Virus record (IMG/VR): IMGVR_UViG_2579779067_000001
Strand: one strand, 5' to 3'
DNA from: a virus
Taxonomy: Duplodnaviria > Heunggongvirae > Uroviricota > Caudoviricetes
DNA length: 54,751 bases
Shown: piece after piece, positions 5,861 through 6,320 of the stretch
Layout: the number at the start of each line of letters is the position of its first letter
Numbering within the stretch: position 1 is the first letter of the stretch
Made by a program: the position numbers and the translations under genes
The notes under the pieces: model-generated
What the model was told of the DNA's origin: nothing
Databases searched by the model: none
The model's input: the letters and a program-made list of their open reading frames with translations, nothing else

Positions 5861-6106
5861 ATGACTTTTGATGAAAAAGAACTTGATAATGCAATTAATA
5901 AAATCATCGTAACGTCGCTCTTTTCCTGTCTCAGCGACACTCAGCAGAAACAGTTCTACGAATCGGCTTTCAACATGATCGAGCGTTGTTGTTTCTGCGA
6001 TGCCGACGAGTTACCTGAAAAAATCAGGAAACAGTTGGCTGATGCTCTTCGAGTGCGACTTTCTGACCAATTTTCTGAAATGTGCTCTCCGAATTTGGAC
6101 AAATAG
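5861..6106 (+). CDS. hypothetical small protein
   Basis: 81-aa ORF with AAGGA SD; convergent overlap with the 6024..6320 ORF. Confidence 0.35.
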   Translation: MTFDEKELDNAINKIIVTSLFSCLSDTQQKQFYESAFNMIERCCFCDADELPEKIRKQLADALRVRLSDQFSEMCSPNLDK

Positions 6107-6320
6107 AAAAAGGCCATTTCCATTCAGGGTCTGATGGAAATACTTCAGCCTGTTCCAAAGCACGGCGTAAAGAGAACACAACTCCAGCCATAATCTGATG
6201 TTTCCCATTGGTCCAGCTATCGCCGCTCTGATCTACAGGGGCGGCTATGTCGTATGACCAAACGACTTCACAGTTATTGTTTAAAATCTGGACTTTCATT
6301 TCATACACCTGCTTTAACAT
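6024..6320 (-). CDS. hypothetical small protein (first leftward gene downstream of the putative OL/pL region)
   Basis: 98-aa ORF; possible start at Met8 with AGGTG SD. Confidence 0.35.
   Translation of the reverse strand: MLKQVYEMKVQILNNNCEVVWSYDIAAPVDQSGDSWTNGKHQIMAGVVFSLRRALEQAEVFPSDPEWKWPFSICPNSESTFQKIGQKVALEEHQPTVS

Follow-up and report, generated by a model that had tools for sequence, protein, structure and literature searches.

Phages lambda and P22 each combine an exclusion function with another phage function that protects the phage from it (rexAB with ren and sieB with esc, respectively). The excludon, another arrangement relevant here, was reportedly described by Sesto et al. in 2013. 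In the Tha/Ith system of Staphylococcus aureus prophages, the defence gene is on in lysogeny, and its protein inhibitor is the product of a small antisense gene that overlaps it. Owing to antisense transcription, the two states exclude each other and autoimmunity is avoided when the prophage is induced (PMC11087260, PMC12288877). In Escherichia coli K-12, prophage e14 has the convergent genes ymfI and ymfJ, which overlap by 63 bp and are located immediately left of ymfK, the gene for a cI-like repressor. The ymfI-ymfJ pair is among the convergent excludons of strain MG1655 that have been listed from RNA-seq coverage (PMC12288877). Late in the SOS response, ymfJ RNA is raised with a log2 fold change of 4-4.8, that of ymfI by only 1-2; YmfJ has a value in the "signalomics" row of the same study, and its authors attribute the response of the two genes to the e14 cI-like repressor (PMC11002266). 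Here, we analysed a convergent gene pair in a viral DNA stretch of 54,751 nucleotides (IMG/VR record IMGVR_UViG_2579779067_000001; the whole stretch is referred to as the window), which represents an SfV/CPS-53/e14-like lambdoid prophage of E. coli/Shigella. The plus-strand gene B (5861..6106, 81 amino acids (aa), ATG start) and the minus-strand gene A (6024..6299, 91 aa from the ATG at 6299) are located left of the immunity region.

The two genes run towards each other and have 83 bp of their 3' ends in common (6024..6106). The initial annotation had described this layout as a plus-strand open reading frame (ORF) of 81 aa and a minus-strand ORF of 98 aa with a 3' overlap of about 83 bp, which agrees exactly with the coordinates. 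It had also suggested that only one of the ORFs may be real, and conservation in homologues of just one frame was to count against the pair. The comparison with a Klebsiella-type prophage (L006) is informative on this point. The DNA of the two prophages is 70% identical across 5792-6300, and no alignment was obtained elsewhere nearby. In the non-overlapping part of B, the differences at codon positions 1/2/3 number 14/4/30, with proportions of nonsynonymous (pN) and synonymous (pS) differences of 0.18 and 0.83. The corresponding values for the non-overlapping part of A, anchored at ATG 6299, are 17/7/37, 0.185 and 0.86. In each region, the remaining five frames contain stops or have a pN about equal to or above pS. 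The own-frame third-position pattern of both genes was repeated over 10 pairs from five lineages. Both frames are open and under purifying selection in at least nine lineages, and constraint on the B protein was observed in at least seven.

It is hardly credible, given these patterns, that only one ORF is real and the other is a chance open frame. RefSeq annotates A alone, and gene callers on divergent contigs called B alone, as such an explanation would predict. However, each ORF has its own third-position bias in the part that is not shared, and both are open in every lineage. The doubt raised in the initial annotation is therefore dispelled: both frames are conserved and selected across the homologues.

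The protein searches extended the pair to other genera. The first searches returned B only as near-identical E. coli copies and A also as divergent copies. One divergent A copy (P0040) is placed in a different prophage context (L006-L009), where tblastn detected A at 64% and B at 62% identity. A profile search with B gave homologues of 56-64% identity in Klebsiella, Salmonella (two types), and Yersinia, and every contig from these genera with a B homologue has an intact A homologue. The A homologues reach down to about 35% identity, and the contigs of the distant A forms, collected by an exhaustive hidden Markov model (HMM) search, also hold a convergent B homologue. The B homologues of L020 (80 aa) and L021 (82 aa) have identities of 26-44%, that of L021 being about 26% identical to B; the homologue in L182 has 76 aa. 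The geometry is fixed as well. The distance from the ATG of B to the ATG of A is exactly 439 nt, without indels, in five lineages of Escherichia, Klebsiella, Salmonella, and Yersinia prophages. Within E. coli, 80 IMG/VR loci represent 37 haplotypes. No stop codon was found in either gene in the 36 ungapped haplotypes, and one more haplotype has a 1-nt gap. The synonymous to nonsynonymous polymorphisms of the E. coli-type copies are 4:2 in B and 7:11 in A. On this comparative evidence, A and B are two real, co-inherited protein genes. Gene B is nevertheless absent from the RefSeq records that we inspected, in which only its partner A is annotated, since one member of an overlapping pair is lost in automated gene calling.

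Profiles of A and B gave dozens of pattern matches and no confirmed relative in a contig collection with one genome per species. The P0064/P0065 branch gave no match in a viral scan, and tblastn of the divergent A forms against cultured phages returned SfV-type phages only. NCBI assemblies of Klebsiella, Salmonella, and Yersinia do hold the pair; representative genomes may lack such prophages, or the stretch may be masked in them.

A is the orf33 of phage SfV and belongs to PHROG 3195 (expectation value (E)=6.4e-70 over 1-98/98), while B belongs to PHROG 3311 (E=1.2e-55 over 1-81/81); both are phage families of unknown function. The two proteins are hydrophilic and soluble, with grand averages of hydropathy (GRAVY) of −0.3 to −0.65 and an overall isoelectric point (pI) of 4.4-5.8, except for the A core of Salmonella L017. 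B is acidic (pI 4.6, and 4.4-5.0 across all lineages). A is also acidic, with a pI of mostly 5-5.8, the L017 core (pI 8.1) being the exception. B is predicted to form a three-helix bundle, with a predicted local distance difference test score (pLDDT) of 82.6; the model of A was poor (pLDDT 64.8).

The minus-strand ORF can be read from ATG 6320 (6024..6320, 98 aa) or from the second ATG at 6299, which gives the 91-aa form called in RefSeq. The homology to all divergent copies ends at ATG 6299 (6299-6300), and 13 of the 37 E. coli-type haplotypes turn into unrelated sequence at 6301. For these two reasons, A was assigned 91 aa. The minus-strand frame proposed in the initial annotation is genuine, and its length of 98 aa is probably seven codons too long.

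The 3' end of A was also considered, since in other genera the frame of A remains open for 122 aa, with a B overlap of 161-173 bp. A Cys/His-rich tail in this form was examined as a zinc-binding extension and rejected. The tail zone evolves like DNA that codes for B only, with changes at B positions 1/2/3 of 0.18/0.14/0.52, compared with 0.24/0.11/0.47 in the B-only zone, and the window has two stops in the stretch matching the tail. Only a short zone, A aa73-84 and B aa63-74, has a dual-coding signature: the third-position variation of B is 0.29 there and 0.47-0.52 elsewhere. This conserved dual-coding core covers about 6047-6082. Thus, the 83-bp overlap is close to the functional overlap.

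At its N-terminus, A is found in extended forms. In P0059, P0061, and P0063, proteins of 170-198 aa, the C-terminal half corresponds to the A domain, and the N-domain of about 85 aa is helical and starts with MEFKDLP. Separately, prophage L006 has a gene for a 105-aa protein (MSDNPLTKQLAYEACMNIFYGEK..., 2664-2981) between the repressor gene and A. A homologue of this gene is the minus-strand member of another cassette type (L260), in which its partner is a 61-aa plus-strand gene; the minus-strand genes of the slot can therefore be stacked or reshuffled. A link by fission or fusion between the Klebsiella 105-aa gene and the N-domain of the long A forms was not significant.

The pair forms a unit with sharp limits. 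The A/B cassette has 509 bp (5792-6300), with a conserved leader element at its left boundary and the start of A at its right boundary. Of 5426 complete E. coli genomes, 408 contain the full cassette, and it is found beside three repressor types (S24, Phage_CI_repr, and HTH_3). Many E. coli chromosomes and, piecewise, phage SfV match the region 5000-7700 at 99% identity. Phage SfII is nearly identical to the window up to 5828 and again from about 6258 (one mismatch in the right flank), and the sequences are unrelated in between. In SfII (L003, 2771-2839, minus strand), 22 codons from the start of A are left (MKVQILNNNCEVVW...), and a stop comes directly after them. They are a scar from the replacement of an A/B-type cassette by another one through recombination inside A. 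The slot of SfII is occupied by a convergent pair of 63 aa (plus) and 68 aa (minus) with a 39-bp overlap, and that of SfIV by a pair of 144 aa (plus) and 73 aa (minus) with a 29-bp overlap.

To survey the slot, IMG/VR was scanned with the last 23 nt of the leader element. More than 120 loci were found, and 113 with enough flanking sequence were typed. They fall into 18 downstream sequence types, including A/B, so that at least 17 other, unrelated plus-strand genes follow the same element. In nearly all 18 types, the Shine-Dalgarno (SD) sequence and ATG of a plus-strand ORF (61-163 aa) are placed 33-40 nt past the element, and a convergent minus-strand ORF (47-162 aa) overlaps it by 4-167 bp and is followed by the repressor gene. 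The convergent 3'-overlap layout is present in about 16 of the 18. Because the same leader precedes many unrelated genes, nearly all of which face a convergent, 3'-overlapping ORF, the site is, judged from these comparisons, a cassette-exchange hotspot. Among 20 proteins of the other cassettes, none belonged to a Pfam family, and none of the eight that were also compared with PADLOC gave a match; the only sub-threshold hints were GhoS, an antitoxin, for one plus-strand gene (18.7 bits), and Lar. The minus-strand proteins are built from modules: the C-terminus that is joined to the MEFKDLP N-domain is of the A type in cassettes with a B-like partner and of the YmfJ type in those with a YmfI-like partner. 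This matching fits cognate pairing, but it could also be simple linkage.

The regularity of the layout bears on an explanation in which A and B are functionally unrelated, A being an ordinary early gene and B an independent moron, and in which the overlap merely leaves no room for recombination between them. Breakpoints do occur within genes, as at the SfII junction inside A, and linkage could account for the match between the C-terminus of the modular minus proteins and the plus gene. However, independent insertions would not repeat the architecture so regularly behind one leader in unrelated cassette types. Moreover, the pair is kept at protein identities down to about 26-35% with a fixed geometry, and the overlap core is under dual constraint. 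We therefore consider it unlikely that the two genes have nothing to do with each other.

The conserved leader element of 38 nt (TGCCTGTCTTTTCACCACTTCAGGCTCGGTGGTAT, 5792..5828, plus strand) is located upstream of B. Its identity between the window and L006 is 100%, compared with only 70% for the adjacent coding DNA. It is recognisable in Salmonella, Yersinia, L020, and L182, and its first 35-38 nt occur alone in K-12, 36 nt upstream of ymfI in prophage e14. Two inverted repeats are interleaved within the element, GCCTG (5793-97) with CAGGC (5812-16) and ACCAC (5805-09) with GTGGT (5820-24). An RNA pseudoknot formed by these repeats was considered and dropped, with one compensatory change and equal results in 65 of 500 shuffles. 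An extended −10-like motif, TGgTATCCT, is located at 5821-5829. Its T1, A2, T3, and T6 are kept past the break of the cassette homology (TATCCT, TATCTT, TATGCT, and TATTCT).

Directly past GGTGGTA, a hairpin begins (5826..5853, plus strand), in which the 5' arm (TCCTTTTA, 5826-5833) and the 3' arm (TAAAAGGA, 5846-5853) are separated by a 12-nt loop. The 3' arm contains or abuts the SD sequence; in the window, it includes the SD of B, AAGGA at 5849-5853, which is 7 nt 5' of the ATG and bears out the plausible SD that the initial annotation had given to the plus-strand ORF. The covariation was evaluated with a custom script for anchored stems because MAFFT failed to register the variable hairpin arms. 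Among 33 distinct leaders from different cassette types, 97% have a stem of 5 bp or more that is anchored at the same T, compared with 39% of the shuffles; the mean stem length is 6.6 bp for the leaders and 4.3 bp for the shuffles. Stem positions 2, 3, 5, 6, and 7 each have 2-5 Watson-Crick pair types (two at position 3). Eight U·G wobbles are formed on the plus strand, which would be A·C on the minus strand. The folding energy of the single-sequence hairpin is not significant (z=−1.2), and Rfam has no family for the B leader. The hairpin covariation and the plus-strand wobbles argue for a plus-strand RNA leader that masks the ribosome-binding site of B, and the comparative evidence for it is good. 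If such a leader is made, its transcript would have to begin no later than position 5826, and a start about 7 nt past TATCCT is incompatible with this.

A conserved and structured leader could also belong to an RNA product. In this explanation, the plus-strand RNA would be the main product, an antisense regulator of the early leftward transcript acting on early-left timing in an oop/sar-like manner, and the B peptide would be secondary. The transcripts are necessarily complementary over at least 83 nt, and if the B transcript ended at a weak terminator-like site on the plus strand (6389-6413), it would be antisense to the whole of A. However, folding does not support this site (z=−0.03). The purifying selection on B extends over its whole non-overlapping part and across at least seven lineages, and B has a strong SD. 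A principal role for the RNA thus seems quite improbable.

The region on the other side of the pair suggests that A belongs to the early leftward transcription unit. Two operators of the left-operator (OL) type are located on the minus strand at 6514-6528 (TTGCGAAATATGCAA) and 6537-6551 (TTGCGAGATATGCAA), and the same 15-bp motif occurs again at the right operator (OR, 7319-7333). A putative leftward early promoter (PL) consists of TTGCAT (6528-6523), a 17-nt spacer, and TATCTT (6505-6500) on the minus strand; the hexamers were read by eye. The cI terminator (6569-6586) is located just upstream of the OL operators. No minus-strand terminator-like site was found from 5300 to this terminator, including the interval between A and yfdP. 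The ORF that comes first past the OL-like operators is A, which makes it the probable first gene of a repressor-controlled PL transcript. From this position, A would be silent in the lysogen and made at once upon induction or infection.

The interval between the operators and A contains a block of about 65 nt in the PL leader (6344-6410, both strands, GAATCATCC..GGCTACTTCGTGGGCGTCCTGCCTGTTCG), which is conserved in SfII and in Salmonella L016 and L017. In Yersinia L013, the block (about 3900-3965) lies beyond the other end of the cassette, to the left of the B leader. The block could serve in antitermination or in the processing of the PL transcript. The weak terminator-like site described above lies within this block.

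These features can be combined into a model of an antisense-coupled, mutually exclusive, cognate pair that is tied to the lysis-lysogeny state. Full-length A and B mRNAs would be complementary over the overlap because the coding regions share 83 bp. Judging from its position, B would be transcribed independently, against PL, with its own leader. Firing of PL would shut B down through transcriptional interference and duplex RNA, and transcription of B would in turn damp leaky expression of A. Geometry and precedent suggest that this would constitute an excludon-type, mutually exclusive switch coupled to the lysis-lysogeny state. The e14 positional analogue would support such mutual exclusivity indirectly. 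By analogy with Tha/Ith and RexAB/Ren, B could be an effector expressed in the lysogen, such as a superinfection-exclusion or defence factor, and A could be an early neutraliser that spares the lytic growth of the phage itself. The overlap would also keep A and B together in a highly recombinogenic region. We regard this model as tentative, coming near to probable without reaching it.

Several observations weigh against the model. The promoter of B was not located; TGgTATCCT matches at only 8/12 positions, and a transcript started from it would lack the 5' arm of the hairpin, which overlaps this motif. The PL hexamers match at only 7/12 positions, and the promoter scan did not report them. A, B, and their divergent homologues had no hit above threshold in Pfam, NCBIfam, or PADLOC, and hence no defence, toxin, or regulator family, and PDB sequence profile searches with A and B gave no match. 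There are natural variants in which A is frameshifted or truncated and B is intact (L004, L005, and L018), and others in which B is altered by internal deletions or frameshifts (P0013, P0020, P0022, and P0023). Because variants of both kinds exist, neither gene appears to be strictly required, so far as the assemblies can be taken at face value. The co-occurrence of A and B could come from the linkage imposed by the overlap, not from function. Finally, the evidence on ymfI/ymfJ concerns non-homologous genes of the same slot. Some of the broken variants may be sequencing errors, as they are found in short Logan/ENA contigs, and some may be real pseudogenes.

The polarity of the pair may also be the reverse, with A as a harmful early protein (host take-over or Kil-like) and B as a constitutive buffer, acting as a protein inhibitor and an antisense RNA against leaky PL expression in the lysogen. 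The pair would then be a safety catch of toxin-antitoxin type and not a defence system. The genetic data, namely, the co-inheritance, the convergent overlap, the position of A behind PL, and the B leader, are the same for both polarities. The first PL genes of lambdoid phages are often toxic, as in the case of lambda kil and N, and the weak, below-threshold similarity of another cassette's plus gene to the antitoxin GhoS would fit this direction. However, A is a small, acidic, soluble protein unlike any toxin family. The variants with an altered B and an apparently intact A would be unexpected if A were toxic without B, and those with a broken A and an intact B occur as well. A hairpin that masks the SD would also be odd for a gene that is constantly on. 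We thus judge the reversed assignment to be rather unlikely.

Returning to the model with B as the lysogenic effector and A as its early neutraliser, the exchange site allows a broader formulation. A/B can be described as an antisense-coupled prophage pair, or moron-like cassette, in a so far undescribed hypervariable slot, and as one allele of an exchange site at which a single conserved leader precedes many unrelated convergent modules, none with a known function. The locus has hallmarks of accessory (defence or counter-defence) prophage loci, namely, diversity at a fixed position beside the repressor gene, obligate pairing, and antisense coupling to a lytic promoter. In the broadest form, the slot past PL in SfV/e14-like enterobacterial prophages would be an unrecognised hypervariable hotspot with at least 18 families of cognate two-protein modules. 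Each module would consist of a lysogen effector, probably for anti-phage activity or exclusion, and an early-lytic neutraliser, wired by the 3' coding overlap, with one shared leader gating the translation of the plus-strand gene. Of these modules, A/B would be the one found most often, with a presence in about 7.5% of complete E. coli genomes. Taken as a whole, this formulation is doubtful, although less so than the reversed polarity.

The genes around the cassette are in the order yfdQ (4171..4995, minus strand), yfdP (5061..5423, minus strand, 120 aa), a non-coding stretch, the B and A ORFs, an S24-type cI repressor gene (6606..7298, minus strand), a cro-like gene (7396..7656, plus strand), and ymfL (7649..8206, plus strand). 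Directly left of the cassette, the minus strand at 5558-5773 has a sub-threshold match to the STnc100 RNA family (RF02076), which is full-length (1-206) and scores 39.5 bits at a gathering score of 47 (E=1.8e-6). A 226-aa minus-strand ORF at 5061-5741 is an artefactual upstream extension of yfdP that crosses this region, and RefSeq has a "frameshifted hypothetical protein" at 5438-5748, which may be a mis-called small RNA (sRNA) region. STnc100 has been related to the PasD sRNAs in a 2026 preprint (10.64898/2026.05.13.724894). The match was found again in SfII and weakly in L006 and L019, and not in other lineages; as it is not a constant neighbour of the cassette, it was rejected as a part of the module. 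To the right of the immunity region, two related prophages have strong Rfam matches to the C4 antisense RNA (78-82 bits) and isrK (65-68 bits), at 7281-7469 in L016 and 2124-2322 in L020. This region corresponds to an antirepressor control module of the P1/P7 c4/ant-like type, which was not found in the scanned part of the window (5000-7700).

Compared with known systems, A/B resembles a type II toxin-antitoxin system in that two small adjacent genes on a mobile element are always co-inherited. However, a type II system is an autoregulated operon, whereas A and B are convergent on opposite strands, both are acidic, and they have neither a toxin or antitoxin domain nor a DNA-binding antitoxin. 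A type I system has a small hydrophobic membrane toxin, in contrast to the hydrophilic, acidic A and B. Of the small regulatory or toxin-antitoxin-like pair suggested in the initial annotation, the linkage has held up, with strict co-occurrence and a fixed geometry across genera, while the toxin-antitoxin character finds no counterpart in two convergent, acidic, soluble proteins outside toxin, antitoxin, and defence families. A looser effector/neutraliser logic is possible. Like rexAB/ren and sieB/esc, A and B are accessory genes beside the immunity region that are present or absent among close relatives; unlike A/B, those genes run in the same direction as cI or PL and have no overlap with a partner. 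As in morons, the cassette is present or replaced among close relatives with sharp boundaries, as seen in the SfII comparison and the 18 alternatives. As for the moron's own promoter and terminator, the candidates are the 8/12 extended −10-like motif, which clashes with the hairpin, and the terminator-like site at 6389-6413 that lacks folding support.

The excludons are comparable in architecture, being convergent neighbours whose mRNAs necessarily overlap at the 3' ends, and the coding regions of A and B do share 6024-6106. Most of the listed excludons overlap in their untranslated regions only (PMC12288877), whereas the overlap of A/B is a coding one of 83 bp (4-167 bp in the sister cassettes) within a mobile, exchangeable unit. 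The noncontiguous operon Tha/Ith has a comparable geometry, being a prophage pair beside the repressor gene with overlapping transcription from opposite strands. Tha is a HEPN protein that is activated by phage tail proteins, and it has no sequence or domain relation to A or B; neither a HEPN nor another domain was found in A or B by the family searches described above. The wiring also differs. In Tha/Ith, the gene expressed in lysogeny belongs to the cI operon and the promoter of the inhibitor is constitutive, whereas in A/B it is the putative lytic promoter PL that the repressor would control, and the gene facing it is preceded by a structured leader. If the logic of Tha/Ith nevertheless holds, E. 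coli, Salmonella, Klebsiella, and Yersinia would offer, at this site, a ready collection of small pairs of effector and inhibitor. The positional counterpart is the e14 pair. The proteins encoded by ymfI and ymfJ are not detectably homologous to A and B, and no shared family was found. However, the two pairs have the same slot, from the early-left genes to the S24 cI-like repressor, as well as the 38-nt element, the SD hairpin, and the convergent layout, and the late SOS induction of ymfJ is like that of a PL gene. On the same condition, ymfI/ymfJ, which occupies this slot in E. coli K-12, would provide a directly testable model.

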